DNA of 64,000 nucleotides from Vairimorpha necatrix (lineage: Eukaryota), in assembly GCA_036630325.1 (NCBI GenBank), contig CP142729.1, positions 248,001 through 312,000 of the forward strand, read 5' to 3'. A program made the translations under genes and the position numbers. Positions within the stretch are counted from its first letter, which is position 1, and every line of letters starts with the position of its first letter. The notes beneath the pieces were generated by a model that was not told where the DNA came from, did no database searches, and worked only from the letters and a program-made list of their open reading frames with translations. Positions 746 to 59,661 of the stretch are shown here, in pieces.

Positions 746-1976
746 AAAATTCATAAAATTTATTTTGAACTTGACGATTCTCTGATTTTTTTACATTTGA
801 TGATCTACCCCAATTCAAAAGCTCAAGATATAAAAATATAAAGAAAAGATGTTTTCGGTAAATTTTACTGAAAACTAGTCTATCTAGAACCTTTTATTTC
901 TCTGAGTTATAATAATTTTCGATAAAATTAACATGTCGTAGAAAGACAGTCTACACTAAATATCTACTCGCCAAACTCAGGACATCTTATTGCTTGTTTT
1001 AAAATTAAAACCTGATGCTAATTAAATGTGTGATATTTCTGAGCTCACACATATATTTACAAAAATGTATTTGACACAATAAAATGCATTAAAGAAAAAA
1101 AAACAATTATTAACAATGCAATAACTACTCTGTTCAATAAGACTAAACTATATAGAAGATGCATATTACATATCCCATACAGAACAAGATGCCAAATCTG
1201 AAATGCGTGATTTTGGGTTGTTTATAGCGTCAAACAGTTTTCTATAAATTACACAATTAAATTGTACCTTTTAAGGACAGGGCTAATTAAGAAATGTGTC
1301 TTATAAAATATTACTACAAAATTTATGTTTATAATCATACCTTTCTTTACTATGACTTTGTAAAATATGCTTTGACAAAGTTTGGCACATTTGTCAATAT
1401 TTAGGTATGAATACAGTATTTCTATCTTGTATATTTTTCTAACCCTGTGATTTTGAATTTAAGGAACGGATATTTGATTTGTAAACATTTTTCAGTTTTA
1501 AAAAGTCACTTATTATTTATCTGATTGAATTGATTCTTATATAAGAAAGCACAAATTTTTTCTTGAATATATCTCAAATGATATTTTTGTTTTAGTAAAT
1601 TTCTATTTGTTTATGCTCATTAAATTTTAAACATCTTTAAATTGCATGTTAAATTTCTTTTTGTTAATTTAAACACTGATCTAGAGTGGCTAGATGGTTT
1701 TCAAGTCTTTTATAAACTTGTCTTTCCCGATATACATCTAAATCTTCTCTCATTGGTCATTCAATTTATTTTCTCATTAAATTGACAATATCTATCTTGG
1801 CCTTGTTTTTTTTATTTTTCTCTACACTCAGTTATATTTTAAATTATAAATATTTCTGTTTTACTAGATTACATTCTACTTCTCTTTCTCATGATATCCT
1901 CTTTGTTTCTTTGTGTTTCATGTTTTTATTTGTCTTTTTTTTTATATTTATTTTTCTTTGATTATTTTTTTATACC

Positions 1977-4190: not shown

Positions 4191-4394
4191 ATATTATATA
4201 TTGTAACATAAAGTCTAATTATTATCTTCAAATTTATTTAAGTCTTATTAAGTTATGATTAATAATTTGATATGAATTAGTTTTTGAATAAACCTTGTTT
4301 TTTTTACATCTCTTTTTACTTTTTAAAATGCAATATTAAATTCGTAAATGGCTAATAAAAAAGAGTCCTTTCTCTAGTTTAATATATTTGTTTA

Positions 4395-5552
4395 TTAAAT
4401 GCCTATAAGTTCCTCATATTCCTCTTTGCTTATATTCAGGTCTTTATATTCCATCTTCTCTATAAACTCCAGTGCTATCTCCAGTATTTTTATATAATAC
4501 TAGCGTATGCTTTCCCGTTTTAAAAACGGTATTAATATATTTGGTTTATGGCATTTACTTCCTCATATATTTTTTTGAGTTTCCATTTTGGTTTAAATAA
4601 TTGAAAGAAATTGTATTTAGAAATCCAATTTTTAGTAGCATATAAGAAGTAAAGTTGAGTTAAAAACACTTATGAGTCTCATTTAAATAATTCTGGGAAT
4701 TTCTAAGCTCAATTTTCGACACTTATAAACAACTTTTTTTTGGTACATGTTTTGTAAATTTTTTTCGTAGAAGGGTTAAATAAATTCTAAAAAACGATTC
4801 TGACGATATTTTGGAACTGAGTTTTACAAAAATAATAATCAAAATTAAAAAGTATTAACTAATAACATACACACTTACGATAGTCAAAATCCTATATTGG
4901 GTTTATATTTGATATTCAAAAAACACCAAAAGCAAAAAATTTATGGTGTGAAAATTTCAAAACCAAGAAAAAGAAGGGTAAAAAATTAAATAAAATTCTT
5001 TTATATATATGATTCTACTTCTGACTCATTCCTCTTTATTCTGTGCCCGCAATTTATGAAGATTCTCCTTCTATAATCTCTCATGTACTTGACTAGTACT
5101 CTGAGATCTTTTATATTGCTCTTTATTATTGTGTAGACTAGAATATTCAGGAGATCATCTTGTACTTCTTTATTATTTCTAATAATGAAATCCAGATATT
5201 TATTTAATATTTGAGAAGGCGACTTACAAAATTTTATACTTTTAAATATCTCCACATTATTATCTACATCATCTATAACATTATTCAAATTATTTGATCT
5301 TTCTTGAATATTTAAGTGGCGTGGTAGAAGTCTCTCTTTATACAAGTCTATCTTAGTGTTTAATAAATAATCTGACTCGTGTCTGGCGAAATATTCCTCA
5401 TAGAAAGATGAGAATATCTCATCTTCTAATAAGTCAAGAGACTTGTCACAGAGGAACTTGGACTTATTAGAAATATAAAAATCTTGTAGACTGGAAGGAT
5501 TTAGTAAGAGAACATTAAGAGACGGGATAATCGAGGAGGTATTCTTATACAT
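4395..5552 (-). pseudogene. VPS9-domain (Rab5 GEF-like) gene interrupted by a Helitron
   Basis: 5552..5013 encodes ...QDDLLNILVYTIIKSNI...ESEVE. 4499..4395 continues in frame as YYIKILEIALEFIEKMEYKDLNISKEEYEELIGI*. Joined, this gives a 214-aa protein with the VPS9 motifs (DDLL.L.Y.IIK.N; E..YY...LE.AL.FI). Confidence 0.8.
4500..5012 (-). mobile_element. Non-autonomous Helitron, 513 bp
   Basis: On the minus strand it starts TC (5012-5011) and ends CTAG (4503-4500). Palindrome CCGTTTT-A-AAAACGG (4515..4529) lies 11 nt from the CTAG. Inserted between host A and T with no TSD; removing it restores the host ORF exactly. Confidence 0.9.
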
Positions 5553-11351: not shown

Positions 11352-13655
11352 TTATTTAGATATTTCGTTGTTTTCTAGTGCTTTCACTAGGTTTTCATGT
11401 ATCTCCATTCCAGTCCTATCATTGACCTCTGCCAATATTTCTTTTTCATTTAACTTTTCTTTGATTTTGAATAAAATATTTTTACTTAATTCGATATCAC
11501 TCTCACCATTTTTTATAAACTTTTTAAACAAGGCCATCAATGTTTGAGTAAAATATTTTTTCCTGCTATGTATGACATTTTGTTCTAGATTTTTTGATAT
11601 GTCTTCGTAAAATTTATTTTTTAATTCGGTTTTGCACTCATTTATAAAAATTTCGTCGATATATTTTGGTAGATTTTTTATATTTTTAGTTAGATTCTCA
11701 TACTGTATACATCTATCAATCTCTTCATTTCCATTTTTTTTTAATTCTTCTTCAAATTTATTTCTTACGTCTTCGTCATATAAATTATCAACTTCATTAA
11801 TCAATGCTTCTTTTTTTAATTTAAACAACTTTGAACATAATTCTAATCTTATAATTTTTATAAATATGATTTTTATGTTATTCAAATCGGTAGTTATATT
11901 TTCTTCGTCAATAGGTCTTATAATATTTTTCAATTCATCATAGTATTTTGTTATTGCATTATTTAAATCTTCTTTCATATTTATCGATAATTTTTTACTA
12001 ATTAAATCGTTATTTTTTTCAACTTGATCTATATCGAATTTGAAAAAATTTATAATTTCATCTTTTTTTAATTCAAAACATAGCCGTCCCTGTTTAAAAA
12101 AACAGGTTTCATATCCTGTAACCAAAAAAGTAATTTTAATAATAAATTCGTCAACTTTTTTATGAAAATCTATAATATCTTGCATATGATATTTAATAGC
12201 TTCATGATATATTTTTGATAAATCTATAAATTCATTTTTTGAAGTTACCCCGGGGTCTTTTGTCCTTTTACAGTCTTTTTTTGAAGTAATTAACTGTCCA
12301 ATTTTTTTCAAAGTACCGAATATAGAATCATTGTCCATTTTATTTTCATTTAAATATTGTTCTGCTTCTAAGAATAAACATATTTTCATCAAAAAAGTAC
12401 TTGATAAAATTCTATGATTGGACAAACTTTTTAATATTGAATTTATAAGTTTTGCATGTTCGGTGATTTCAGAGTTGGATTGCATTATAATTTCATTTAA
12501 CTCATTTTCATCTATCAATTTCTCACTAAACACTAGGTGTGCGAACATAATATTTATAGCCGTGCCACAATTATTTAAAATTCTTTGCAAAAGAAATTCT
12601 ACTTTATTATCACTTTCAATTAATCTATAGAACATATCAACTCCGCTTATTAATTCATTATTATCATTTATTGAAAAAATCTTATCAAAAAGCATTTCAA
12701 ACTCAGTGAAGCATTTAGTAGTAATTCGTACATCGGATTTCAGGATATATCCCATGTTTCTTGAATAATAAGTATAACATATGCTATCCTGGATGAAATT
12801 TACATCGGACTTATTTATTCTAATTTTCAAACCACCATTATTTAATTCAATATCATCAATTCGTTCCCTCAGAAGAAATATAAATGAGGATGTACGAATC
12901 TTATCCATATAAGCGTATTTATAAATATGACGGAAAAGATTACTTATTTGTTTGTCTGTTTTATTTTTATGTGATGTTCTAAAATTAGCTGAGTTGAAAA
13001 TATTTTTAAGATTTAGTTCTCTGATATCTATTTCAAAAAAATAATATATATGTTCTAAATTAATAAAGAAACATATAAATACGTTGTTGTTTTTTTTTAT
13101 GAACATGGGAGCTGAGTCAAGAGTTTCCAAATCACCAAGTTTTTTAATAGAATGCTTTTTTATTTTTGAAAACATTATTGCGTAATGAATGCTTTCTTCA
13201 ACAATGTGATCATAGTGTATAGTATTTCGAATTGATGTTTGTGTTCTTGGCCCGTTAAGATTTTTTATTTGATTGATTATTAATTTATAAGTTGGATTAA
13301 TCTCATAATCCATTTTAGAATATAATAATATGATATAATCTGGCAAATAAGTATTACATTCATGTAGCATTTTTTCTTCAAATTCTTCGATGGCTAAAGT
13401 TACACTTTCCTTTTCTTCATTGATAGTTTTTTTAAAAATACATTCTGGTCCAAAACCTTCAAATTCTTTATTAAAATAAAATTCATTTTCAAAATAATCG
13501 AAACACAGGCGAATCCTCATGTATTGTTTCTCTGTGTCAATTACAAGATATTCCTTGTTCTCTATTTTTTTGAGAGTATTAATATATAGTTGATTGTATG
13601 TATTTTGAAATCCTTGTACAATTAAAAATGTGTAAAAAAATTTTATAGTTTCCAT
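11352..13655 (-). CDS. Lineage-specific 767-aa protein, probable signal peptide (family A)
   Basis: Long ORF with hydrophobic N-terminus and AACCCTT-ATG start context. Shares YYFF.I.I and KIC.F.E..Y motifs with 25820..27295 and the decayed copy at 16.4-18.6 kb. Confidence 0.8.
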   Translation of the reverse strand: METIKFFYTFLIVQGFQNTYNQLYINTLKKIENKEYLVIDTEKQYMRIRLCFDYFENEFYFNKEFEGFGPECIFKKTINEEKESVTLAIEEFEEKMLHECNTYLPDYIILLYSKMDYEINPTYKLIINQIKNLNGPRTQTSIRNTIHYDHIVEESIHYAIMFSKIKKHSIKKLGDLETLDSAPMFIKKNNNVFICFFINLEHIYYFFEIDIRELNLKNIFNSANFRTSHKNKTDKQISNLFRHIYKYAYMDKIRTSSFIFLLRERIDDIELNNGGLKIRINKSDVNFIQDSICYTYYSRNMGYILKSDVRITTKCFTEFEMLFDKIFSINDNNELISGVDMFYRLIESDNKVEFLLQRILNNCGTAINIMFAHLVFSEKLIDENELNEIIMQSNSEITEHAKLINSILKSLSNHRILSSTFLMKICLFLEAEQYLNENKMDNDSIFGTLKKIGQLITSKKDCKRTKDPGVTSKNEFIDLSKIYHEAIKYHMQDIIDFHKKVDEFIIKITFLVTGYETCFFKQGRLCFELKKDEIINFFKFDIDQVEKNNDLISKKLSINMKEDLNNAITKYYDELKNIIRPIDEENITTDLNNIKIIFIKIIRLELCSKLFKLKKEALINEVDNLYDEDVRNKFEEELKKNGNEEIDRCIQYENLTKNIKNLPKYIDEIFINECKTELKNKFYEDISKNLEQNVIHSRKKYFTQTLMALFKKFIKNGESDIELSKNILFKIKEKLNEKEILAEVNDRTGMEIHENLVKALENNEISK

Positions 13656-15156
13656 AAGGGTTAACTTTTTTCAATTATATATTAAAATATTAGGAGTTAT
13701 GTTTATTGATAAGATTAAAAATTCTAAAATAAACACCTGTCAACCCTGTCATGTTTTCTGTTTTTTAGATGTCAATAAAATCGTTAAAAACTTCAAACTT
13801 CATCACAAAAAATATGTATATTTACAAGTATAATATTCGATATCTGCATGTTGCCCCCAAAATTGTCTTATTCAAGAAGTGATGACGACAATTAATTAAA
13901 TACTACATTTGTTAATCGATAAGTCACCAAAAAATATGCAACATAAAATACCAGGAATTTGGTTTTTTATATTTATTAATTTAAATTTTTACAAATAATG
14001 ATTTAAAAAAAATATGTAAAATTATTTTATATATTTTTTTTTATAGAAATTAATTAGTAAAAATTAATATTTGGACTAAATTGTATTTTCTTCCCTTCTT
14101 AATTTTATGTTTAAATTTTTGATAATAAGCCAAAATATAATTTCCTAAACTACACATTTCAATAATTTAAATAAGAAAAAAGGTAGAATTATTAAATAGT
14201 TCATAAATAGAAGCAAGTATTTGTTGATAAGTTATTATAATTGGATCTTTGGTGTTTCCTCGACTAATGAATTTCTGTTAAGAATAACATACCATAATTT
14301 TATGTAAGTATTTAAACGTAGTGCAAGTATATTAAAAGTAATTGTCGATGGAGCAATATTATGATAAAATACTAATTGAAAAAAAATTATAAACATTTGT
14401 ATATGTTTTCTTTCATATTAAGCAAGGCGAATTATAAGTATTTTTGTGGTAAGAATATATAACCACTTCCTTTAAAAACTGTAAATTTTGTATTTTTGTC
14501 CAAAAAACGGAATTGAGAAAAGACAAGCAAAAAAAGGCAAAATACTATTCTTTTCAATATTTTAAATAATAACGAAATAATTTTTGTGTACAAAAATATT
14601 TTTTTACTATCTATTAGGGTTAAAACATATATCGATAAATATTTAGTTTTAATTAATATGGAATTTTAGATTTACATAAAAAAGTTTAGAAAGTAAAATC
14701 CGTTGTAAATGTTAAGATCAAATTATAATTATTTTTGTTGAAAAGAGTAAATGAGTCTGAACGAAATTGCATATTTATTTAAAAACTTTATCTTTTATAT
14801 TGTGTTTGAAACAATGGTTTGTGATAACCATGTTGGATTGGTCAAACTTGTGTTAAAACAGTTTGGTATATGATTACAACCAATGATTGGTAACTAGAGT
14901 TACAACAATTTTTTAACATTTTTTGGTTTAAGAGTAGGATTTTGATAAATCATTAACTAAAATACAAAAGCATTATAAATAGGCTACAAAATTAAATGAA
15001 ACAAATTTATGCAATCGCCGTAAACGATAATTGTGAATTGTTTTAACTAGATTGTTGTATGCGAATTTCATTTTTTTGTTGATTTCTAATATTTTTTTTT
15101 AATCGTGAATTTTGTCATCCTTTTTTGCACATTTTAACACCTTAAATTTGGTACAT

Positions 15157-18615: not shown

Positions 18616-18653
18616 TGTTGGGTTTGGAACCCTTATGAATAAAGAGACTAACA
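18616..18653 (+). repeat. 5' LTR of element 1 (38 bp)
   Basis: TGTTGGGTTTGGAACCCTTATGAATAAAGAGACTAACA followed by TGG (PBS-like). Confidence 0.9.
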
Positions 18654-19552
18654 TGGCAAACACGAGAGTAAATGGGGTAACAAGTGAGACCGTGGTCAAG
18701 TGGCCAGAAATTTGTAAAAAGGGGCGAAAAGAATAGGAGCAATGACGAGAATTGAGGAAGTATCTTTAAAGCAAACATTGAGACATGCAAGTGTCGAACT
18801 GGAGGATCTGATCATAGAGGAAATTTTAGTAAATTTAAATAATTCGAGTGAAATAATTGAGGAAATGGGAAAGTTGGTTAAAAATGAAGAAGAAAGAATT
18901 GGAAGAGTTAGTCGAAGGTATTAAAGAAAACTTAAGAAATGAGATCAAAGGGGAGCTAGTAAGAAGAATAGCAATACCAGGAAAACATTATCAATGTAAA
19001 AGAAGAGAAGATACGTTTCGTATTTGGAAAAGTAGGACATATAGCTAGAAGCTGTATTAAATATATAGAAAAACATAAAGAAGAAGATGTGAATAGAAAT
19101 TTTAAGTTTTTTGGTATTTATTATAATAATAAGTCAAATAAGAAGAATTTTTTGAAGAAAAACGATTATAAATTAATATTACCATCCGTGGATGGAAGAG
19201 AAAATACAAGAAGAGGCTCGGACAGGAAATATATGAGTAGCAATTCTACTGATAATAGTAACAAGAAGTTTAATTATGGAAGCAAGACAAATAAGTTCGT
19301 GGTTGAGGAGTGAAAAAATTTTTGATTATAATATTAAAAGAGATAAAAAGGGCTTACAATTAGAGGAAGTTGTAGATCAGTTTGCAGTTGTATTAAAACC
19401 ATCATAATAGAAGATAACGTTTGGAACTATAGTAAAAAGTTTTATAAGGACACTTAAAGGTGCTAAGGTCGTGAGAAGAAGTCAAATAATTCCTCGGAGT
19501 GCAAAAAAAGAGATGAGGAGATACTTTCAGAAAAAATTATAGGCGTGATAAG

Positions 19553-19821
19553 TGTCATGTCCTCAAAACCATGACATCTGTGTTTTACTGTGTTAAAACT
19601 TTAATCAGTAAAACACTGCCCCGAACGAATAGTCTAAGGCGGTGATCTCTAACGATCGGACATGAAACGTTATGTTTCATAAATAAATATAAATAGTCCA
19701 AAAAGTTAGAAGACACCGAGCATGAAGAGTAACTTTAATAACAAATCAAATAAAAAGAAATATAATACAAATATTTTAGAAATGTATTTAAAAAACGGAG
19801 ATATTACTCCAGTTCATGTCA
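19553..19821 (+). repeat. 5' LTR of nested element (269 bp)
   Basis: Direct repeat of 22154..22422 with 2 mismatches seen. Confidence 0.95.
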
Positions 19822-21148
19822 TTTTGAATTCAAAGACATTAAATGAACAAAACAAAAAACGAAATAACGAAGATGACTATATACAAGTCAAAATCAAAGT
19901 TCCAGACTCGGACCTGGAATTTACGAAGAAATTAAAAATAATAAAAAACATCGAAGAATTCGATTTCATTCCTTGGTTTAAGGAATTTGAAGAAATAGCC
20001 ACACAGAACAAATGGAATGCTGAACAAGGCATCATGATACTACGAAATCTAATTACTGATCGACGCCTAGAAGCGGATATTTTCATTACAGATGCAGCAA
20101 CAACCAAAAGAAACTTAATTAAACATATTTTTGAGCAAGATGCTAAAGAAATGTTGCAAGAAGCCTTTAAGGTAAAACAAATAGATTTTCTTTTTATAGA
20201 AAACTATTATGAAAAGATTTACAACAAGATAAGTATCTATAGCGCTTATTACGAAATAAGCAAATCGGAATTTAACAGACATTTAAGCGAATGCTTTTAT
20301 CAAGGGTTAGGAAGAAACTCTACGTTTGAAATAATAAAACATAACTTAGGCGAGAACGTCTTAAATGCTTATAATCACCTAAAAAATATTGAGAAAATGA
20401 TTCGAAAGAAAGCAGAAACTAAGAAAATAAACAAGGTGTCTAATGACGAGCCAGTATATCAAGAAAGAGAAGGATCATACAGTAAAAAGTTTTCAAACAA
20501 GACGAATAACCCAAGATCTTCGTATATAAATAAATGGTGTTCTATACACAAAAACACTAGCCACGACACCAAAGACTGTTATTACAATAAAGACCGACAA
20601 AATGAAAATAAGAAGAAAGAAACAAGAGAAAATCTTAAGATAATCAAAGAACCAATAAAAGTAATAAATGGAATTGAATTAGAAGGTTCAATTGAAAAGA
20701 AAGAAACCAGATTTTTAATCGATACAGGTGCCACAAGAAATTTTATTAGTAATAAAAAGATCAAAGAATTGAAATTATCACCCATTGAAGATGTGGAAAT
20801 CCAAAAAAATTTGCCAATGAGCAAAAAGAAATAACTAACAAAACAGTACTTGTTAGAATAACATTAAAGAATCTAATGAAAGAAAAATACGTAAGATTTT
20901 ATATATTAAAAAACAACAGCGATGATGTAATATTAGGAAATGAATTCCTAGTCGCAAATGAAGTAGTAGTAAATTACAAAGAAGGAACAATTTATGTAGG
21001 AAGGGAGAGATTGAAATTTCTACATAACGACGAATGTTGCGAATTAGACGCAATGTTATTTGAGAAAAATAATGTAGCCCACCTTTTGTCAAGATGCTAT
21101 CGTATTAGTGAGACCGACCTGTTAGAACAGGAAATGAAAACAAGGTAG
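19722..21148 (+). pseudogene. Gag + aspartic protease of nested element (frameshift in A-run near 20805)
   Basis: WFKEFEEIATQNKWN (Gag), CSIHKNTSHDTKDC knuckle variant, FLIDTGATRNFIS protease active site, then DVILGNEFL in the next frame. Confidence 0.85.
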
Positions 21149-21225
21149 ATGAATGTGCATTAAAAACAGAAAATAAAAAGAACTTTAAAAAAGATGAAAA
21201 AGAAAGAATTTATATTGACAGAAAA

Positions 21226-22143
21226 ATGACTAAAGAATTTATTAAATTTGTCCACGAATTGTCGGGACATTGCGGGCAAGTAATCATGTATTTAAACTTA
21301 AAAAGATGGTACAACATCATAAACATTAGAACAGTGATCCGCAAGATATGCAATCAGTGTATCGTATGTAAAGAAAACAAGGATTTTAAACAACAGAATC
21401 TAGAAAGAAATAAAATAGATAGCAGTGCACCATTTGAAATAATAAGCACAGATATTTTTGGTCCTTTTCTCCTGGAGGAGTTTGAGGGCGACTCTCTAAA
21501 CCATAAGGGTTATATCTTGACCATAACCGATGTGTTTTCGAGATTCACGAGAATTTGGTTTGGTGAGAAGTTTAGGAGTGAGGAAGTTATTATGTGTTTA
21601 AACGAATGGAGTGATGATTTTGCGAAGCCTAAAGCGCTAATTTCGGACAATGGTCCGCAATATAAAAGTAAAAAAATGAAAGATTATACTAATAAAATAC
21701 AAATCGAACATCGGCTAATACCGATATATTACCCTCAAAGCAATGGAATTTCAGAACGTATAAATCAAACAATTGCAGAAGTGCTGAGAATGAATATAGG
21801 AAAGAATATAAAACACATTATTATGCAAATTGAACATCGGATAAATAATAATGTTAATACCACACTGGGAATTGCGCCTAGAGAAGCAATTTATAAGAAT
21901 AGTTTTTATGACATTGAGAAAAGGGTTAATGTGCCATTTTTGCGAAACATACCTGCAGTTGAAGTGAACTATAAGCGACGTATCGCAGTAAATGACATTG
22001 TATACTTAAAAAATTATAGCAATAATAAACTCGAGCGGAAATACTATGGGCCGTTTAAAGTTATGGAAATCGGTAAGAAAGGAAGTTGGGTTCGACTTAA
22101 AGACATGCCCAACTGGGTTCATATTAAACAGTTGAAGCTGTAG
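21226..22143 (+). CDS. Retroviral-type integrase of nested element
   Basis: HELSGH..CNQCIVC zinc motif, STDIFGP, ISDNGPQY, SNGISER, YGPF (GPY/F) motif. Confidence 0.9.
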   Translation: MTKEFIKFVHELSGHCGQVIMYLNLKRWYNIINIRTVIRKICNQCIVCKENKDFKQQNLERNKIDSSAPFEIISTDIFGPFLLEEFEGDSLNHKGYILTITDVFSRFTRIWFGEKFRSEEVIMCLNEWSDDFAKPKALISDNGPQYKSKKMKDYTNKIQIEHRLIPIYYPQSNGISERINQTIAEVLRMNIGKNIKHIIMQIEHRINNNVNTTLGIAPREAIYKNSFYDIEKRVNVPFLRNIPAVEVNYKRRIAVNDIVYLKNYSNNKLERKYYGPFKVMEIGKKGSWVRLKDMPNWVHIKQLKL

Positions 22144-22153
22144 GGGGGCAGAC

Positions 22154-22422
22154 TGTCATGTCCTCAAAACCATGACATCTGTGTTTTACTGTGTTAAAAC
22201 TTTAATCAGTAAAACACTGCCCCGAACGAATAGTCTAAGGCGGTGATCTCTAACGATCGGACATGAAACGTTATGTTTCATAAATAAATATAAATAGTCC
22301 AAAAAGTTAGAAGACACCGAGCATGAAGAGTAACTTTAATAACAAATCAAATAAAAAGAAATATAATACAAATATTTTAGAATTGTATTTAAAAAACGGA
22401 GATATTACTCCGGTTCATGTCA
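22154..22422 (+). repeat. 3' LTR of nested element (269 bp)
   Basis: Direct repeat of 19553..19821. Confidence 0.95.
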
Positions 22423-24647
22423 ATAAGGAACGAATTCTGATTGGAGGAGTCCGATACGAGCGATTGAGAAGCCTAATGGTGGCGGGACGAATTGTGAGTA
22501 ATTTTATGGGGTTGAATGATTTGATTGAAAAAGGCCCTTATGCGTTACTTACAATAAGATACATTTAAGCAACTCAAGGATCCTCGGTATTTAGTGTGAT
22601 TGATCTTGAAGAAGGGTTCTTCCACATAGCAATTGAAGAGAAACACAGATATAAAACAGCGTTTGAATTTGATGGGAATGTGTACGAGTGGAACAGCATG
22701 GTGATGGAATCTAAGAACGCACCACAGATAATGCAGAAAACAATGAATGGGATTTTAAAGAATTTTAAAGGAAAGGGTGTAAAGGTGTATTTAGACGATA
22801 TAGTTATTCACGCTAAAGATGGCATGCGACACGACGAGTTATTTTTGGGTGTAATGAAAAGTTTCCAAACGCACGTCTCAAGATTAATCTTAAAAAGATA
22901 CAATATAGGAAAGGAGAAGTTTATTTATTGTGAGTGTCAGCCGATGGTAGTAATAAAAAGCCATCAGAAATAACAAGAAATGAAGCGTTAGAATATAAGC
23001 GGAAGGAGTGCGTGAGGAAATTGCGGAGATTTTTGGGTTTGGCGATTGGTTTAGAGAATTTATTAAGAATTTTGCGACAATAACATTAAACCTATTTGAG
23101 GCTTTAAAAACTAGCAGAAAATGGAAGAAGAATACATTTTAATTCAACAAGAGTTAAGCAATTTCAGCTAATAAAGATACCAGACTATATGTTTTGAATT
23201 TAGGTTACGTACAAATGCGTCGGATACGAGGCTTGGAGCAGTCCTTTTACCAAGAATAAAGAAGGGATCTGGATACCTATACAATGGGCCTCAAAAAAAA
23301 TTGACACCAACGGAGAGAAGATATGCTATTTTGAAAAGGAGATGTTAGCGGTTGTATGGGGCATAGAAAAGTTTTTTTACGAGTTGAGAGGAAGGAAATT
23401 TGAGTTAATGATGGACCATAAAGCCTTTGGAGAGCTTAGAAACAACCCCTTCTTTAATTTTAAAGAGTAGATTGGTGGATTATTATAATACAGGAGTATG
23501 ACTTCAACGTGCAATATGTAAAGGTGAATTAATGGCAGATGCGGATGCTTTAAGTAGACAAAATCAAGATGATAAAAATAAAAATGAATCTTTAATATAG
23601 AAAAAAGTTTCTGCACAAATGAAGGGAAAAATTGAAAAACACACAGTGATCAGAGACAAAAAGGAGCATTGGGAATTTGATAATGGAGTACAAAGGGAAA
23701 TCCCAAAATTGAAGAGAGATCAAAAATTGTAAAGGACATACATGAGGGGTTAAACCATAGAGGGGTAAAAGTGACATATTTTGAACTAAAGAAACATTAT
23801 TATTAGCCGAAAATAAAAGATCAGGTAATGTGAAAAAAGAGCATGCTAGATGTGTCAGATAGGTAATAGGAAGAATAAGGATGGTGTTGATTATGTTACA
23901 TCAAGTTATAAAGGCGAGAAATTTGCAATTAATGTCATGGAGATTGGTGATCCTCGAAAGTTGGCTTTAATGGGAATTGACTATTTTACTCGATATTTGT
24001 ATGCTAGTGTTAATAAAATAAAAGTACAAATATGATTTTTGGTGTTTTAATGGATTAGTCTAAAATAGGAGATATCCCCGGATGATTATAAGCGATAACG
24101 CCAAAGAGTTAGTAGGAGAAGACTTTAGGAAGTGGTGTTTCATAAACAAGATTGAGCATAGGAAAGTTAGCGTAGAAACCCACAGAAGCAACGGCCGGAT
24201 AGAAAGGGTGGTAAGAACGATACGTGGAAGCGTATTTAAGCAGCGTATGGTTGATTCTGAAGCTGCAGTGAATAAGACAACGGTGATGTACATTAGGACG
24301 GATCATAGCGGACTTAAGTGTACCCCCTTGGAGGCTGTTAACGTAAGAAATAAACATGTAGAGGCAAAATGGGAAAACTCGGGAGATGAAGAATATGCCA
24401 AGAAATTTATCAAAAGGGCGAGAGAAAAGTTTTCGGCGGGCCAGGCTGTAAGAATTGCGAAAGAGAGAAAATCTTGGTAATGTTAGCAAACAGGATAGTG
24501 GTAGATTCGACAGAAAAGGCGATCAGCTTGAAAGTTGTGGGGAAGATTCTTATCTAGTAAAAACTGAGGATGATAAAATTATCAAAAAGAGACATTATGA
24601 TCTTAAAGGAATTATGGAAAGTAAGACTAACCGTCTCGAGGATAAGA

Positions 24648-24685
24648 TGTTGGGGTTGGAACCCTCATGAATAAAGAGACTAACA
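24648..24685 (+). repeat. 3' LTR of element 1 (38 bp)
   Basis: TGTTGGGGTTGGAACCCTCATGAATAAAGAGACTAACA; 2 differences from the 5' copy; preceded by a decayed purine tract. Confidence 0.9.
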
Positions 24686-49398: not shown

Positions 49399-50920
49399 TT
49401 ACTGAAAATATAATATATAAATATAAATAAAAAAATAAATAATTGTCCTAATTCACTGCCTTAAAATTTTGCAAAAGATCTTTAATGATCTTCTAACCAT
49501 ATATATAAATATATATATATCTATTTTGCCTATACTACTAAAAAAATAACTCCTATTAACATCATACAGTTTTCACAGTGATATCTTTTTAAATTTTGAA
49601 AAAAAAATTTATTCAAATAAGATTGGTTTATTATATATTGCTTGTAATAAATACAAAAATGGTGATCATTATTTTTAAAAGATAAAAAAGGGATACATAT
49701 TTAACTAGCATTTTATGTAATTCTAACCTTAAATTTTTAAAATATATCATATGGTCTTGTATATGACAGAAAAAAATCTTATTAATATCATTTAAGTGTG
49801 GTATCAACTTTATTGTCAATATTTGTTTAATTTATAAAGTGATATGTTTGGCGGAAAATTCTCATAATCCTTAGTTTCTAAAAATAGTACATAAACTTAT
49901 CAACTACCAATGTCCAAATGAGTCAATTCAAGCTAAAAACCATGTTTTTTCTCTTTGTAGAAATAAGTAAGCGTAATTCCTCTACTTGAGTTTTTAGAAA
50001 AAAACCATTACATTACTTATATATAACGTATAAGAGACAAAAAAGGTAGTATTTCCGGAATAGCATAATTAATAAAGTATGAAATGGTATTTTTATCTAT
50101 ATTACACTTATCCACTCGTAAAAAATACTCTTTATCCTTCGAATAATATTAGTTGTCAAAACCGCCAAAATAGAAAGATTAAGATTGTTTTGTATGTTCA
50201 CTTTCTCATATAAATTGTAATTAGATGTAATAATGTATTACATGTATAGAGATATGACAAATAAATAACCAACAAAATTGCTAGTCCTACAAGAGATTAT
50301 ATTTAGTTCAAAAGCTAACATTGGTATTTTGAACTCGGTTCTATCGTCTTTATGTCATATCTGTAATCTATCACAAAAATATAGATCAAAATTGTTACAA
50401 AAAATCCGAAAAGTCTAGTATTGTTATGGAATAACCAAAATAATTAGAAAATAAATAGATTTCGTTAATAACTATTTGCCTATATGATGAATGCTTAGAA
50501 ATTCAAAACATCCAGGGCTACCTGAGTTCTTTTTGCTCTATATAAGATCTGGAAATTTAATAGTATAGTTGAACCTTAATAAACATGACTAAAATAAAAT
50601 TAAGAAATTTTTTCTTAGAAGGCCGAATTTTTACGGTTAATTACGTTGTTTTTTTTAGATGGAAAATCTAAAAAAAGCATCTAATTCTAAAACAGTTATA
50701 ACGATCCTATTGATATTATTGTATATTACTTTGTGGTCCCCTCTAGTGAGGGCAAAACAAAAATATTGCTCCAACGGGGAGCGAATGCAAATTTGTTTTT
50801 TAAATGATTTATTAATGGTGGAACTAATCTTTGTGGTACTAATGTTGCCTTTATTGTTGTAAAAATTATTCTTGTTCATTTCTATTTTTGTCGTACCTTT
50901 TTTTAATATTTTTTATTTTT

Positions 50921-50958
50921 TGTTAACCATTTATTTATTAAGGGTTCTAAACCCTACA
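50921..50958 (-). repeat. 3' LTR of element 2 (38 bp)
   Basis: Minus strand TGTAGGGTTTAGAACCCTTAATAAATAAATGGTTAACA directly after the PPT. Confidence 0.95.
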
Positions 50959-53947
50959 TCCCCCCTCCAGACGGGTAGTCTCTCCATCTTCTAAACAACT
51001 CTTCCTTATCTCTTTCAAATCATAATGCCTCTTTTTAACAATTTTACCATCCAGTAGTCTCACAATATATGAATCATTTTCACTTATAGCTACGATCCTT
51101 CCGCGACCCGTGAATCTTCCCTTGTCTGTTTTCGCACGTGTACCTAAATTTTCTCTCCTAGCGATTCTTACCTCTTGGCCTACTGTAAATGTCTCTCTGT
51201 GTCTTCTCTTGAACCGACCAGCATATTTTCCATTTTCATCATTTTCAATTATAACTTCAGCAGTTTGATCTCTCCACGCTTCCATCGGCGTACATTTTAT
51301 TGCTGTATGTAGTGTATTATTATATCCTTTGATTGCTCTTTCTATCTTTTCAGAAATATTCCCATCATTTTGCTTTATCAATGTCTCTCTTATAGTTCTG
51401 ATGCATCTCTCGATTATACCATTACTCCTATGAGCTTCTAAGCCCACTTTCCTATGTTTAATATCATTAATACTACACCATTCTTTAAATCTATTACTTA
51501 CAAACTCTTTTCCGTTGTCTGTCACATATTCCTCTGGAAATCCATCTTCCCTTATCCACTTTTGTAATACCTCTATAACTTCACTACTCTCTTTACATCT
51601 CAAATTCGAACCCCACAACCTTCTAGTAAAGTAATCAATACCCAGTAACACATACCTATTCTCTCCACCTATGTCCATTAAATCCAACGCCACTTTCTCC
51701 AATTTCTTTCTAGTTACTACGAAATCACATCCTCCTGTGTTTTTCCTATTGTTAATCCCACATATTTCACAATTCTTAATTACCTTATTAATATGATCTT
51801 TCATACCAGGCCAATACCATCTTTGTTTAATGTTATAATAAGTGCCTTTGACACCTCTATGGTTTAACTCCTCATGTACTCTTGTTATTTCATGTTCTCT
51901 ACTATCTAGGCTCAATATCTCTTTCACCTCACCTGTGGAAAATTCCCATTACTGTTTACCGTCCTTTTCTTTAATATGTTTCTGCTTTTTTCCCAAAATT
52001 TGTTTTTCGATCACTTCTTTTCTCTTGTTGTCCTTTTCTTTTTGTTCATCCGAAACTTCTACCTGATCATACTGCCTGCTTAACGCATCTGCATCTGTCA
52101 TCAACTCCCCTTTCACATACTCTATTGTAAAGTCAAACTCTTGTATCTGTTCTACCCATCTGTTTATTCTGTTATTATTGAAGTATGGCTTATTTCTGAT
52201 CTCTGCTAATGCTTTATGATCCGTCATCAAATGAAATTTCCTTCCTCTAAAATCACTTTCAAACTTCTTTATTCCAAAAAACACCGCCAACATCTCTTTC
52301 TCACTTATCGTATATCTTCGCTCGGTAGGAGTCAACATTTTCGATGCCCATTGTATCGGAATCCACTCACCCTCTTTATTTTCTTGTAATAGAATTGCTC
52401 CGATCCCCGTATCACACGCATCAGTTCTTACTCTAAATAGCTTTTTTCCGTCCGGAATCTTCAACTTTTTCATATCTCTCAAGCCTTGCTTCATATCCTC
52501 AAGGCTCTTTCCATATCCTCCGTCCAATTCCACTTAACATCTTTCTTTAAAGCCTCAGTAAGCCTTACTGTTCTATACGCATAGTTGGGAATAAAGTCTC
52601 TAAACCAACCAGTTAGTCCTAAAAATCTTCTTAACTCTCTAACATTCTCAGGTTTTCTATATTCCAATGTCTCCTGCTTTTTAATCTCATTCGGTCCCAT
52701 GACCTCCCTATTAATTGTTACTCCCAGCAACATCACCTCATCTTTTTTGTATTGTATCTTTGTTTGGTTTATTCTCAACCCACACTCTTTAAACTTTTTA
52801 ATTACCCTCTCTAGTAACTCGTCATGCACTCTTACGTCTTTACCATGAATAACTATATCATCCATATATACTTCCACGCCTTTACCTCTGAATTCATCTA
52901 AAACTCTGTTCATTACTCTCTGCATTATATGAGGCGAATTCTTAAACCCCATAACCATACTATTCCATTCGTATACTCGACCATTCACTTCAAATGCTGT
53001 TTTGTGCTTATGGTGCTCCTCAATCTCAATATGATAAAATCCTTCTTTTAAGTCGATAACCGTAAATACTTTTGACCCCTGTGTGGCTCTCATAATATCC
53101 TTAATTAACGGTAGTGAGTACGGGTCCTTGTCAACCAAATCGTTTAACGCCATCAAATTGCTTACCAATCTTACGTCCCCATTTGGTTTTTCAAGTGCTC
53201 TTATTGGACTCCTCCACTCACTTTTGGAACGTCTTATAACCCCTCTATTTTCCAACTTATTCAAGTACTCCTCAAATTTCACCCTAAGGTAGTATGGCAC
53301 ATTCTGCCCTCTTTTCACAACCTTTTCACCTTGCTTAGTATTTATTGGACACTTCTCTCCTGTGAGATATTTTATCTTTTCTTCTGATTCTTTAAAAACT
53401 TCCGGATACTTTTCAATTAAATTTTCTAACTTATTTACTGTTTTACATCTTTTCCCTTCATTGTTGATAATTGGTTCTTTCTGTAAAACTTGTTCCTTTT
53501 TAATTTTATATTTTTCCCTACCAGCTACACTTTCATGACATTCTCTAGCGTAATGCCCTTCTTTCTTACATATAAAACATTTTGTAGTTTCTCTGATTTC
53601 TCTTCTTTTCCTATACATCCTAAGATTTTCTTTTCTTTCTTCCCTAAACTCTTTCAACACTTTATCCATAATCTCTTTAATCATTTCTTGTCTTTCTTCT
53701 GACTCTCTCTCAAATTCTGCTCCTTTTTGTAAGCCTTTATAAATTTCCTCCCAACTGCTCCTTCCGTCACAAAAATTTTCAAAAATATAATCCTGCAAGT
53801 TCGCAGATGCCAAATCCATAACATCTTTCCACTCAACTTTCAATATTAACTTTAGTCTCTTATCTATCCTAATTGCCTCTTTCTCTAATGTTCTAGCCTC
53901 TTGACTACGGGACTCTCTTGTTTCCCTGTTCATCCTTGTGTTCGCCA

Positions 53948-53985
53948 TGTTAACCATTTATTTATTAAGGGTTCTAAACCCTACA
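53948..53985 (-). repeat. 5' LTR of element 2 (38 bp)
   Basis: Identical to 50921..50958; followed by TGGCG. Confidence 0.95.
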
Positions 53986-55384
53986 TTTTTTAAAAAAAAA
54001 TTTCTAGAAAATGCATGTTTGTTAAATATTAAAATGAATTAAAAAATATAGAAATGTAACTATTTTGTGGTAGGATACTACATACTTATAATTTGTTTTC
54101 TGAAAATTGATAAATATTTTGTTCATGAGAATTAAATAAGTTTGTTTTGGGTGGTTACAAAAATACAGGTCCTAGGTGAGTTTTTCAAAGTGCATTGGAT
54201 TAATTAATTTTTTAGTAAGCTACGTGTTTTTTATCTAATATATGTAGTCTTAAAGGTTTCTTCAAATTATTACGATAGAATTAGCTTCTCTTAATTCATA
54301 ATTTAATGTGCCTTTCGGTATGTTGTAGCTAGGCCGTTAAATTGAGACATATCAAAGAAAATTTTTTCACAACGCTGAGCCCCTTTGATAGATAATGGCT
54401 ATTAGATGCGTATTCTGTTTTGGTCTGCTTGCTGCAAATCATAATATAGTCACGCTGATCTCAATTATTAGAATTTATTTTGTTTTTTATCACTATATGT
54501 TTTTTTTATTTTTATATCTATATATACTTCCGCTTTTATTTTTATGAATTCATTTCACATCCAGTTATCTGATTGAAAATATTTTTTATTTAAGTTTTTC
54601 ATTTTACCCATTACACGCCAGCAGAAATATTCTTTGACTATCATATTTTGTCTCTAAATGTCCGCCCTACCCTTTTAACCACTTATAAATAAGAAGGAAT
54701 ATGCTTTAATAAAAAAAATTATTTATATAGATGCTCTGAAAATATTATTACCTCTAAAACTTAAAAGTAAATCTTACAAATTAATAAAGTTTCTTACATA
54801 ATTTGGGTATTAATTATGAGTTATGGCGTCAATAGTTAAAAAAGTAATGCATTTACTTTTATTTATGACAAATCGTTAAAATTATATTATCGTCATAAAA
54901 AACAACTTTAAGTGCCAATAATATTCTGAAAAATCTATAATATAATGTTTGAATTAAATTTCTAATTGCTTATGAAAGCTCGAAATCGTTTTTAAGTTTA
55001 CTGTAATGTTGTGCTAGACAAAATAATTCAAAAAAATTATGTTTAAAAAATAGAAGTATAAAAACTTAAGTCCCTAGCATTGTATTCATGCAAATAAAAT
55101 ATTTAGACAGATTAAAATTTTGACAAATAATGACCAGAAGGTAAATACGTTGTGACACATAATAAGTAAAATTAATGCATGTGTATTTAATATGTAATTC
55201 TTTTGATATGTTTTTTTTACTAACAAAATATTTATTATATCATTTTAATTTATCAAAAGTCAGTAAAATTTGCTTTTTATAAAACACATAATTATTTCTA
55301 AAATTCATTCTATACATAAAAATCTCTGAAACATTGTTTGTTATGTAAAAGCAAACTTTAAACGGAGAAGGGATACTTAGAGCT

Positions 55385-56145: not shown

Positions 56146-56348
56146 GAGGCTGTTAGTTCTCTTTAGCCTTTTAAACTACGGATTATAAGTATTTTAATCA
56201 TATTCTACATTTAAACAGTTAGGCATTTAGTTTTTAATAAATCTTCAATTAAATAAATTAAATTTTGGCTTAAAGAATTTTTTAAAAATATATTTACTTT
56301 AATAATTCATTACAGAAACAGAAATTATATTTGGGAGCCTTTAATTAA

Positions 56349-56397
56349 TATAAGTGCTTAACATAATTGGGGTTTAATATTATTACTGATTATAACA
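56349..56397 (-). repeat. 3' LTR of element 3 (49 bp)
   Basis: Minus strand TGTTATAATCAGTAATAATATTAAACCCCAATTATGTTAAGCACTTATA. Confidence 0.95.
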
Positions 56398-56413
56398 TCC
56401 CCCCTCCAGACGG

Positions 56414-59400
56414 TTAGTCTCCTTCAACATACTTTAAATCCCCTACACCCTTAAGATCATAATGCCTTTTTTTCACCAACCTTCCATTCTCTAATCTCAC
56501 TATATATGAATCCCCTGGACATAGCTCAATCACTCTTCCCATGTCTAAAAATCGACCCTTACTATACTTACTACATCCCTTTAAATTCTCATTCTTGGCA
56601 ACCCTAACTATCTGGTTCCTTTTGAACTTTTCTCTAAACCAACTTTTAAACTGTTGCGCATACTTTCCCTCTGGACTATTCTCCATACTAACATTTCCTG
56701 TATTATCGGTTAAAGCTTCTACTGGCGTGCACTTAATACCAGCATGAAAACTTAAATTATATTTCTCAATAGCTTCATAAACCTTGTTCTCGAATTTTTC
56801 TTTTTGGCTCTTTAAAATACTATCTCTTACAGTTCTAATAACTCTTTCTACTCTTCCATTACTTCTGTGCGACTCAACGCTGACCTTTCTATGACTAATA
56901 TCCAAATTTCTACATAGCTCGGTAACTTTTTCGTTGCAAAACTCTTTACCATTATCCGTAATGATTTCCTCTGGTTTTCTACCCTGTTTACACAAATCCT
57001 TGATAAATTCGGCAATTCCAGATGCGTGCTTGCTCTTCAATACTCTGCCCCATAATCTCCTTGTAAAGTAATCAACTGCCAAAACAATAAACGCTTTCTC
57101 ATCCCTAAATTCTATTAAATCTAAGCCAACCTTCTCTAAATATCTTGTCGTGTTCACTAAATCAGTACCGCCACTCGTTTTTCTATTAAAAATCTGACAA
57201 GTCTCGCAATTCTTAAGGACCTTTTCGATCTGATCCTTAATTCCTGGCCAATAATACTGTTTCCTCAACTCATAATATACCGTTGTTCTGCTTCTGTGGC
57301 TCAAATTTACATGACAATCCATTATTAATCTCTCTCTGTCTTGTTCCAAAGGCATCTCGCCTTCTCTACCACTATCAAATACCCAGTATTCTTTACCTTC
57401 TACAATTTTTACATGCTTATTTCTTTTCCCTTCTTTTTGTCTATCACGGCGTGTTTCATTTCTCTTTTTCTTTGCATCTTTTTCTTTTGTATATACCCTA
57501 CTTAGCGCATCGGCTACGACCATATTTTCTGGAGTTCTATACTCTATCACGAAATCAAATTCCTGAATCTTCTCGACCCATCTATTAATTCTAGCATTCT
57601 TAAAGTCGGGCTTGTTTCTTATTTCGCCCAACGCTTTATGATCAGTTTCTATTCTAAATTTCCTACCTCTTAATTCATATTCAAACTTTTTAACGCCCCA
57701 AAAAACTGCGTACATTTCTTTTTCTGATATACCATAATTAACTTCCGTAACGGTAAACTTCTTAGACGCCCACTGTACTGGCACCCATTCTCCTTGATTA
57801 TTTTTCTGTAACAGTACTGCGCCCATGCCTACATTACTAGCGTCAGTCCTCAACAAAAATTCTTTATCATAGTCTGCTATTTTCAGCTTTCCTAGGCCTT
57901 TCAATACTTCTTTTAAATTATTAAACTCGTTTTTCATATCATCCGTCCACTTCCAATTATCATTCTTCCCTTTTAAACTATCTGTCAACCTAACTGTCAA
58001 TCCAGCGTAATTCTTAATAAAATCTCTGAACCAACCCGTCATTCCTAAAAATCTTCTTACATCTGACACGCATGTTGGTATCGGAAACTCTAGGGCTTCA
58101 TTTTTCTTTATCTCTGACGGTATTATATCTTCTCCATTTAAAGTGACTCCCAATAATTTAACTTCCCGTTGACAAAACTGAACTTTATTTGCATTCAGCT
58201 TCAAATTGTTTTCCTTCAGTCTATTTAATACCCTTTTCACTAATTGCTCGTGTTCTCCTATCGTTCGGCTGTACAACACAATATCGTCCATATACACCTC
58301 TACTCCTTTGCCTTTCATATCTCTAAAAATCCTATCCATAATTCTCTGCAATATCTGCGGGCTATTCTTATATCCCATAACCATAGAGTTCCATTCATAA
58401 ACCTTGCCATTAAAATCAAACGCCGTCTTATGTTTATCCTCCTCCTCTATCTCAATACTATAGAAGGCCTCTTTTAAGTCGAAAACCGTCATATATTTTG
58501 CACCTTGTGTAGCTCTTACAACATCTCTTATGTTAGACAATCTATACTCGTCCTTTTGTACAATATCGTTCAATGCCATCAAATTACTAACCAGTCTTAT
58601 CTCACCATTTGGCTTTCTGATCGACCTTATAGGATTCCTCCAACTTGAATTTGACTCTCTTATCACTTTCCTTTTTAATAAATCTTCTAGATGTAGCTCT
58701 GTATCTTTTATCAACGCCTGCGGAACCATTTGTCCCTTTTTAAATACCTTCATACCCGCTTCAGTATTAATTTTACATTTTTCCAGTTTACAATATTTTA
58801 TCTCCTCTTTTCCTAACTTAAAAACCTCTCCAAAACTCTTAGCATACTTATCTAAATTTAATCTGATTCTCTTACTCTCCTCTTTAACGGCATATTCTTT
58901 TTGATTTTTCTCAAATTTGACTCTAAGTCCTCTTTTTGATCTTCTAAAATCTCGCTCCTGACTTGACTCTGATTCACTACCTACTTCCATTTTGCAACTG
59001 TTATCCTTGTTATTCTTTTTATAATAATTATCTCTATTAATCTTCAGTCTGCATTCAAACACCCTATGCCCTTGTCTATCACAATAGAAGCATCTCGGTA
59101 CTCTCGATTTTTGTCTTGGTTGTTCTCTACTAATTTCTTCATTTATAGTCCTAGAAATAATTTTTCTCATTTCCTCATATATCTTTTCTTTTTCCTCTAC
59201 TTCCTTAATCCTTAACAATAGCTTCTTCCTTATTCCTTCAATATTTTCTTCCTTTTTGATATTTCTCACAATAAAATCTTTTAAATCCATCGAAGCCAAC
59301 TTGAACAGCTCACTCTTCCATTTCACTCTATCTACATCTCTCAAATCCAATTCATACAATATACGCTCTAACTCCTGTAACATCTTTCTGACCACTTGGC

Positions 59401-59458
59401 CACAGTCCTCTCTTGTGAACTCTTCTTTAGGTATCGCCCCCATATAAGTGCTTAACAT
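56414..59458 (-). CDS. Single Gag-RT-RNaseH-integrase polyprotein (1014 aa), no recognisable protease
   Basis: CFYCDRQGHRVFEC knuckle; FDLKEAFY, MVMGYKNSP, VYMDDIV (RT); RTDAS..GAVLLQ, ETDHKAL, VADALSR (RNase H); H..LSH..CETC, ITDNG, SNGRVER (integrase). Confidence 0.95.
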   Translation of the reverse strand: MLSTYMGAIPKEEFTREDCGQVVRKMLQELERILYELDLRDVDRVKWKSELFKLASMDLKDFIVRNIKKEENIEGIRKKLLLRIKEVEEKEKIYEEMRKIISRTINEEISREQPRQKSRVPRCFYCDRQGHRVFECRLKINRDNYYKKNNKDNSCKMEVGSESESSQERDFRRSKRGLRVKFEKNQKEYAVKEESKRIRLNLDKYAKSFGEVFKLGKEEIKYCKLEKCKINTEAGMKVFKKGQMVPQALIKDTELHLEDLLKRKVIRESNSSWRNPIRSIRKPNGEIRLVSNLMALNDIVQKDEYRLSNIRDVVRATQGAKYMTVFDLKEAFYSIEIEEEDKHKTAFDFNGKVYEWNSMVMGYKNSPQILQRIMDRIFRDMKGKGVEVYMDDIVLYSRTIGEHEQLVKRVLNRLKENNLKLNANKVQFCQREVKLLGVTLNGEDIIPSEIKKNEALEFPIPTCVSDVRRFLGMTGWFRDFIKNYAGLTVRLTDSLKGKNDNWKWTDDMKNEFNNLKEVLKGLGKLKIADYDKEFLLRTDASNVGMGAVLLQKNNQGEWVPVQWASKKFTVTEVNYGISEKEMYAVFWGVKKFEYELRGRKFRIETDHKALGEIRNKPDFKNARINRWVEKIQEFDFVIEYRTPENMVVADALSRVYTKEKDAKKKRNETRRDRQKEGKRNKHVKIVEGKEYWVFDSGREGEMPLEQDRERLIMDCHVNLSHRSRTTVYYELRKQYYWPGIKDQIEKVLKNCETCQIFNRKTSGGTDLVNTTRYLEKVGLDLIEFRDEKAFIVLAVDYFTRRLWGRVLKSKHASGIAEFIKDLCKQGRKPEEIITDNGKEFCNEKVTELCRNLDISHRKVSVESHRSNGRVERVIRTVRDSILKSQKEKFENKVYEAIEKYNLSFHAGIKCTPVEALTDNTGNVSMENSPEGKYAQQFKSWFREKFKRNQIVRVAKNENLKGCSKYSKGRFLDMGRVIELCPGDSYIVRLENGRLVKKRHYDLKGVGDLKYVEGD

Positions 59459-59491
59459 AATTGGGGTTTAATATTATTACTGATTATAACA
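59443..59491 (-). repeat. 5' LTR of element 3 (49 bp)
   Basis: Identical to 56349..56397. Confidence 0.95.
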
Positions 59492-59661
59492 ATTAATAAT
59501 AAAAAAGGAATACTAGCAGGAAAATCATATTAATAAATAATTACTATCAGATTACACACGATTTATTTTAACAACCATTTAATTTTTATATTTTTTATTA
59601 AATATTGATTTTACATCAATCAATACTGTTTAAAAAACTAAAAAAAGAATTCTTATCGACT

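Follow-up and report, generated by a model that had tools for sequence, protein, structure and literature searches.

The window analysed here, a 64,000-nucleotide stretch of the Vairimorpha necatrix contig CP142729.1, carries three long terminal repeat (LTR) retrotransposons of the Ty3/gypsy type, named E1, E2 and E3 (Table 1). Their LTRs are genuine and extremely short, measuring 38 bp in both E1 and E2 and 49 bp in E3; those of the related metagenome element L003 measure 39 bp. In the three elements the end of the 5' LTR, the TGG of the putative primer-binding site (PBS) and the first codons of gag are shown to overlap. Moreover, the LTRs carry ACCC followed by an ATG, an arrangement that, judging from its letters, is shown to match the context in which this genome's own genes start. 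The structural description of the three elements and of these overlaps is close to certain.

The LTR end, the primer-binding site and the start of gag

The original prediction, attached to the coordinates of E2, stated that the last LTR base (A) and the TG of the following TGG form an ATG in all three elements. Letters, coordinates and gag frame of this junction ATG (18653-18655 in E1, 53948-53946 in E2, 59443-59441 in E3) were confirmed, as was a second in-frame ATG inside each LTR behind a CCC run. The in-LTR ATG lies 6, 3 and 5 codons upstream of the junction in E1, E2 and E3 (at 18635, 53957 and 59458), with a stop codon just ahead of it; in E1 the two ATGs share a frame because 18 nt separate them. 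The open reading frames (ORFs) open within the 5' LTR at these positions and run through the TGG, the use of the starts being predicted from sequence. The reading frame is shown to pass through the PBS and the polypurine tract, which would both be translated.

It should be noted that the junction ATG arises automatically, because an LTR ending in A sits directly against TGG, and therefore its mere presence means little. The TGG adjoins the LTR without a spacer in all four 5' LTRs (E1, E2, E3 and L003), and the LTR ends are TGT...ACA in E1, E2 and L003 and TGT...ATA in E3, with TA instead of CA. The in-LTR ATG next to CCC is judged from its context to be the better candidate for the main gag start. 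Regarding the primer, a transfer RNA (tRNA) scan of the window gave no tRNA genes, and no LTR stretch complementary to the PBS, as in self-priming of the Tf1 type, was seen in a comparison made by eye, with no formal test.

A protein search returned about 40 relatives with 34-72% identity (mostly 43-72%), mostly of around 1000 amino acids (aa) and on contigs of 3.0-3.2 kb, whose sources by name are Nosema granulosis, Vairimorpha necatrix and Enteropsectra breve. N-termini were counted in P0001-P0041 minus 13 cut or unalignable proteins, that is, in 28 proteins (E3 and 27 database proteins). A methionine stands at the junction column in 24 of them, and the next residue is A (17), G (6) or V (1), all with codons that start with G; this constant pairing with a G-codon residue reads as the signature of A/TGG (ATG-G). 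An upstream in-frame methionine is present in 21 of the 28. Among the 24 proteins with a junction methionine, 17 also have the upstream one, 16 at fixed offsets of 3, 5 or 6 codons and one in a long extension. The MANTR N-terminus of E2 recurs in relatives. The four proteins without a junction methionine (P0013, P0040, P0025 and P0030) begin 5-6 residues upstream, and P0013 and P0040 read D-G or H-G at the junction column; this fits CATGG in another frame, which would leave only the in-LTR ATG as a start in these two. A profile search with protein representatives returned mostly long fused Ty3/gypsy proteins and no further N-termini.

These counts bear on which of the two ATGs would be used. 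It is conceivable, if unlikely, that the junction ATG is the true gag start, that transcription begins between the two ATGs or the first is skipped as too near the cap, and that the in-LTR ATG is incidental. The junction methionine is indeed the more conserved (24 against 21 of the 28), seven relatives begin directly at it, and the upstream ATG in the 5' LTR of L003 is out of frame. On the other hand, the conservation of the junction methionine is forced by CA plus TGG, and the four proteins that lack it, two of them with D-G or H-G in its place, all begin upstream. Furthermore, the upstream ATG holds its fixed offsets, is in frame in the five LTRs that can be judged and stands in a host-like position behind CCC.

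ACCC and ATG in related LTRs and at host gene starts

Six LTR types were compared, those of E1, E2 and E3 together with L003, which is complete, and L004 and L005, which are 3' ends only. Conservation across the family had been set as a check on the original prediction, and ACCC followed by ATG was found in all six types. ACCC is the sole invariant internal block of the alignment, and the ATG lies 0-11 nt behind CCC: 2 nt in E1, 4 in E3, 0 in L004, 3 in the 3' LTR copy of L003, and 10-11 in E2 and L005. In-LTR and junction ATG share a frame in all five cases with a known LTR end, L003 being counted by its 3' copy. One useful family member (L005) came from scans of prokaryote-genome and viral collections, in which the remaining matches were other gypsy-type or pararetrovirus-like sequences; L001 and L002 were rearranged or cut, and no LTR was obtained from them.

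It was also observed in these scans that two bins labelled as metagenome-assembled genomes of Clostridium sp. and Turicibacter sp. (G001 and G002) hold many eukaryotic gypsy-type contigs (L005, L006 and L016-L042), and that they include one member of the mini-LTR family. Eukaryotic retroelement contigs in bins with bacterial labels are most likely binning contaminants.

Host gene starts offer a direct comparison. The window is A/T-rich (around 22-25% G+C outside the elements) and carries compact eukaryotic genes, with ribosomal protein S5 domains, DCP2/NUDIX, VPS9 and GNAT acetyltransferase among them. Taken with the sources of the related proteins, the host was treated as similar to Nosema/Vairimorpha microsporidia. 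Host ORFs were taken as those of at least 150 aa outside the elements, starting at the first ATG after a stop (n = 18). In 12 of the 18, CCC lies 3-9 nt before the ATG, against CCC within 12 nt upstream in 95 of the 2294 ATGs of the window on both strands (4%). Host starts several times read CCCTT(A)(A)ATG, and contexts of the CCCTTA type are common to host starts and LTRs. The identity noted in the original prediction between the host start at 13655 (-) and an LTR context also held, since both read AACCCTTATG, matching the LTR of E1.

This arrangement resembles the CCC-like start signal of microsporidia, in which CCC directly precedes the ATG and leaders are very short (PMC2803860). Genes of Encephalitozoon cuniculi are described as having 5' untranslated regions of less than 7 nt, with a CCC-like motif a little before the start and AAUAAA or AUUAAA close to the stop codon (PMC2803860), and an ACCCTT motif is reported in Nosema apis, with CCC motifs associated with expression across Nosema (PMC11592040). 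The signal is known from host genes and is found here within LTRs; no report of a CCC start signal inside an LTR was found in the literature.

The LTRs also carry a hexamer, AATAAA or ATTAAA, in all six types. The AATAAA of the original prediction is present in E1 and E2, and E3 has ATTAAA in its place; likewise, the predicted LTR length of 38 bp is that of E1 and E2. The hexamer lies downstream of CCC in E1, E2 and L005 and upstream of it in E3, L003 and L004, and therefore there are two layouts and not one.

A GGGTT-NNN-AACCC hairpin had also been proposed. The stem is confined to E1, E2 and L005 and is absent from E3 and L003; in the three types that have it, its energy is -4.6 to -5.9 kcal/mol, with z values of -0.08 to -0.24, and 78-89 of 200 shuffles fold equally well or better. 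The hairpin was consequently rejected as a supported feature, as it does no better than shuffled sequence and is missing in E3 and L003. As a separate observation, the GGGTT-N3-AACCC stretch (18620-18632 on the plus strand, 53969-53981 on the minus strand) is palindromic, and because of this an AACCC on the opposite strand points outward from the 5' end of the element. This outward AACCC could in principle serve as a start signal toward the flank.

Chance should be considered at this point: the CCC, the second ATG and the hexamer could be features of short A/T-rich repeats without any role. This genome is rich in AATAAA (0.125 per 40 nt per strand), and the behaviour of the hairpin in shuffling agrees with this possibility. 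Nevertheless, ACCC is present in every LTR type even though the sense strand of the element bodies holds few CCC triplets (0-0.18 per 40 nt), and the in-frame ATG recurs among relatives that are 43-72% identical. A chance origin of these features is regarded as highly improbable.

A proposed layout for the short LTR and the evidence against it

A functional model with an LTR promoter, a gag start at the in-LTR ATG, collapsed U3, R and U5 regions and cleavage directed by the hexamer is favoured here, with modest confidence. In this model, the A/T-rich stretch and the ACCC of the LTR would form a minimal core promoter of the host type, and transcription would start shortly after CCC, like that of host genes whose leaders are a few bases long; we infer both from the leaders, CCC motif and hexamers of E. 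cuniculi and from the CCC motifs of N. apis and other Nosema. The U3 would take up about 17-29 nt of the LTR, with the attachment (att) end and, depending on the type, also the hexamer and CCC; R would measure about 10-20 nt, from the transcription start to the LTR end, and hardly any U5 would be left. Gag would begin at the in-LTR ATG. The junction ATG would encode a second in-frame methionine and act as a back-up start, or as the sole start in lineages without the first ATG.

At the other end, the hexamer of the 3' LTR would direct cleavage at or just past the LTR end, providing a short R for the first strand transfer. Where the hexamer lies behind CCC (E1, E2 and L005), cleavage would fall near or beyond the LTR end; where it lies before CCC (E3, L003 and L004), only its 3' copy would be transcribed. 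An R of 10-20 nt seems workable, because R measures 11 bp in mouse mammary tumor virus (MMTV) and 21 bp in Rous sarcoma virus (RSV) (PMC3601003). Integrase specificity is placed within the terminal 8-15 bp in the same source (PMC3601003). The original prediction had promoter, poly(A) signal, att ends, PBS and Gag N-terminus overprinted in about 50 bp. The overlap of LTR end, PBS and gag start and the host-like ACCC-ATG bear this out in part and the hairpin drops out of it, while the promoter and the poly(A) signal are what we infer.

Several observations weigh against this model. Sequence, and not transcripts, is the basis for where transcription starts, where the poly(A) site lies and which start codon is used, and the N-termini come from predicted proteins, whose first methionine may reflect a gene caller's choice among alternative start codons. 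Seven of the 28 proteins have no upstream in-frame methionine and begin at the junction one. The 5' LTR of L003, one base off its 3' copy, has its nearest ATG behind CCC out of frame, and the gap of 10-11 nt between CCC and ATG in E2 and L005 exceeds the 0-6 nt of host genes. The differing position of the hexamer means that no single U3/R layout fits all LTR types. The junction ATG is an automatic product of CA/TGG and its frame may simply be inherited. Finally, the six LTR types are related to one another and fall into about two or three lineages, and there are therefore fewer than six independent cases.

The mini-LTR might also have no promoter of its own, the element being transcribed by read-through from neighbouring host genes and ACCC being kept for strand transfer, integrase binding or the like. 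Such read-through is common in microsporidia; for E. cuniculi, both transcriptional overrun and transcripts of several genes have been documented (PMC2803860), and 38 bp leaves very little room for a promoter. However, under the standard scheme of LTR replication, a transcript started in the flank should give strong-stop DNA that ends in non-homologous flank, which should hinder the first strand transfer. In addition, the ACCC and ATG module matches host starts in sequence and spacing, and the family is multicopy at many sites, which argues against reliance on chance neighbours. Read-through is considered rather improbable, and the model with a promoter in the LTR is kept.

The evidence for many copies comes from contigs of DNA runs. 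Coverage in two of these runs is far deeper over the element bodies than over the flanks (in run X2, about 60-5400 for the elements versus about 30-47 for the flanks). Contigs end within the LTRs, as in the pieces of run X1 at 50930-52593, 52564-53965, 56370-57691 and 57662-59462, and loose contig ends lead to other flanks near the LTR ends. Depth and contig ends fit a multicopy element whose unit is bounded by the short LTRs. One entry for run X2 joins both flanks of E2 at low depth and could represent an empty site, but these flanks are A/T runs, and it was not relied on.

The elements and their place among known retroelements

The coordinates of the elements are collected in Table 1. A 20-nt LTR pattern has four matches in the window versus 0.01 expected from shuffles, and elements of the family measure 3065-3163 bp. 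Target duplications of 5 bp flank three of the four complete elements (E2, E3 and L003); E1, an older element, has no recognisable duplication at its ends. A G-rich purine tract adjoins the TGT of the 3' LTR, reading GGAGGGGGGA in E2 and E3, GGAGGAGGGGA in L005 and GGCGGGGA in L003 and L004; that of E1 is degenerate but still purine-rich (GAGGATAAGA). The E3 ORF shows the Pfam order RVT_1, RT_RNaseH, Integrase_H2C2 and rve, that is, reverse transcriptase (RT), ribonuclease H (RNase H) and integrase. E2 likewise encodes a CCHC knuckle, RT, RNase H and integrase, without a protease. The frame of E2 is broken twice despite its identical LTRs, near 52494-52503 and at 51949-51951 (-), by one frameshift and one premature stop, and contigs of other copies in four DNA runs differ from E2 at exactly these two places. 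In E1, the reading frame stops 33 codons past the in-LTR ATG.

Table 1. Coordinates of the elements and related features (window positions unless a relative is named)
Feature	Position	Strand	Details
E2, whole element	50921-53985	-	3065 bp; element under the coordinates of the original prediction
E2 target duplication	50916-50920 and 53986-53990		AAAAA, 5 bp
E2 5' LTR	53948-53985	-	38 bp; TGTA...AACA; identical to 50921-50958; GGGTT-TAG-AACCC; AATAAATAAA
E2 CCC in 5' LTR	53969-53971	-
E2 in-LTR ATG	53955-53957	-
E2 junction ATG	53946-53948	-	terminal LTR A and TG of TGG; in frame with gag; spanned by ORF 53957..52491
E2 PBS-like stretch	53934-53947	-	opens with TGG directly after LTR; frame reads A-N-T-R behind junction Met (M-A-N-T-R)
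E2 gag-pol frame	50947-53957	-	three pieces: 53957-52491, 52494-51949, 51804-50947
E2 polypurine tract	50959-50968	-	GGAGGGGGGA; adjoins 3' LTR; within coding frame
E2 stop codon	50947-50949	-	within 3' LTR
E2 3' LTR	50921-50958	-	38 bp
E3, whole element	56349-59491	-	3143 bp; both LTRs identical
E3 target duplication	56344-56348 and 59492-59496		TTAAT
E3 5' LTR	59443-59491	-	49 bp; TGTT...TATA; ATTAAA; CCCC at 59463-59466
E3 in-LTR ATG	59456-59458	-
E3 junction ATG	59441-59443	-
E3 PBS-like stretch	59430-59442	-	TGGGGGCGATACC; frame reads G-A-I-P behind junction Met (M-G-A-I-P)
E3 polyprotein ORF	56414-59458	-	intact, 1014 aa; gag with CCHC knuckle, RT, RNase H, integrase; no protease
E3 polypurine tract	56398-56407	-	GGAGGGGGGA; same as E2 tract
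E3 3' LTR	56349-56397	-	49 bp
E1, whole element	18616-24685	+	unrelated LTR element nested inside
E1 5' LTR	18616-18653	+	38 bp; GGGTT-TGG-AACCC; CCC at 18630-18632; AATAAA at 18638-18643
E1 in-LTR ATG	18635-18637	+
E1 junction ATG	18653-18655	+
E1 3' LTR	24648-24685	+	38 bp; 2 mismatches to 5' LTR
L003 LTRs (complete metagenome relative)	540-578 and 3664-3702		39 bp; duplication TTATA; TGG after 5' LTR; GGCGGGGA before 3' LTR
L004 (3' end only)			purine tract GGCGGGGA
L005 LTR (3' end only)	2724-2761		38 bp
Host gene start	13646-13665	-	context AACCCTTATG; ATG at 13653-13655

Some further observations were made on these elements. In E2 (50947-50968) and L005 (2712-2737) the stop codon of pol lies within the 3' LTR and the polypurine tract is coding; the ORF therefore spans about 98% of the element. 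The DNA just upstream of the purine tract is conserved across E1, E2, E3, L003, L004 and L005. A stretch of gag DNA about 30 nt behind the PBS (TGGCCAAGTGGTCAGA in E3, 59385-59410 on the minus strand, and similar in E1, 18676-18700 on the plus strand) is also conserved between elements and encodes the G-Q motif of the family. It could give the primer tRNA a second contact, in the manner of the additional boxes of Ty1, or just reflect protein constraint.

The element nested in E1 (19553-22422 on the plus strand, 2870 bp) is unrelated to the family, with 269-bp LTRs that are about 97% identical and an ATAAG target duplication at 19548-19552 and 22423-22427. Matches to aspartic protease and integrase are present but none to RT, and the first ORF of this nested element (from 19722) likewise opens within its own 5' LTR and reads through the LTR end.

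Regarding the protease, no match to a Pfam protease family was found in residues 1-280 of E3 and E2, even at E values up to 10, and 22 aligned relatives have no invariant Asp between the CCHC knuckle and RT. The whole family (E3 and P0002-P0041), in which knuckle and RT are only about 65-90 residues apart and no Asp is conserved between them, is without a protease domain.

More striking than the start codon is the miniaturisation of the family: 3.07-3.16 kb, no protease and nearly every base coding. It is tentatively proposed, with less assurance than the functional model, that this is the smallest self-sufficient design of an LTR retroelement so far, in which LTRs of 38-49 bp would have U3, R and U5 collapsed onto a host CCC initiator of 10-20 bp, the att end, start codon, PBS, polypurine tract and stop would lie in or against one protease-less ORF, and the family would be spread across Nosematidae and microsporidia of the Enterocytozoon group. 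On this proposal, it is the equally small size of microsporidian core promoters that alone would allow an LTR of 38-49 bp to serve as a promoter. Should the LTR indeed be the source of promoter, start codon, R and poly(A) signal, there would be a new lower bound for a functional LTR, a mobile element would have copied the minimal signal with which genes start in an extremely reduced genome, and the microsporidian CCC motif could be tested as a portable promoter module. An autonomous-looking, protease-less element of 3.1 kb with LTRs of 38-49 bp that mimic host gene starts is judged to be the result most worth following.

The usual lower bound of LTR length is about 100 bp, and 38-49 bp is far below it. 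Standard LTR finders would miss the family provided that they require repeats of at least 100 bp. Short-LTR elements are likely mis-annotated as LTR-less polyprotein genes in microsporidian assemblies, which would distort estimates of the content and activity of transposable elements. No description of very short LTRs in microsporidia was found in a literature search that covered sources other than subscription papers and Repbase.

Compared with known systems, the elements have most of the characters of Ty3/gypsy retrotransposons and depart from them in two, the protease and the size of the LTR. In principle there is precedent for a gag that opens in the LTR and an ORF that contains the PBS. 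In Ty1 of Saccharomyces cerevisiae, a member of the Ty1/copia group, gag translation reportedly starts within the 5' LTR, which is several hundred bp long. The PBS of Ty1 also lies within the GAG ORF (PMC4974528). Ty1 differs in its protease, its copia gene order and its two-ORF frameshift layout, whereas the elements described here have LTRs of 38-49 bp and a single protease-less ORF that opens in the 5' LTR and extends as far as the polypurine tract or into the 3' LTR.

One polyprotein ORF, in place of separate gag and pol, is also described in the microsporidian Ty3/gypsy groups of Parisot et al. (2014, PMC4202319); the text of that report does not mention a protease, and no LTR lengths were found in it or in its supplement rows. 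MMTV and RSV resemble the proposed layout in that strand transfer works with an R of 11-21 nt (PMC3601003), but their whole LTRs are hundreds of bp long and have separate U3 promoters. Finally, very short TG..CA repeats and 5-bp target duplications are shared with the FRetro129/SMART and TRIM elements of plants. The shortest LTR repeats found in print are the 85 bp of FRetro129, which has no coding capacity (PMC3281118), whereas the LTRs of the present elements are about half that length and bound a unit that encodes RT, RNase H and integrase.

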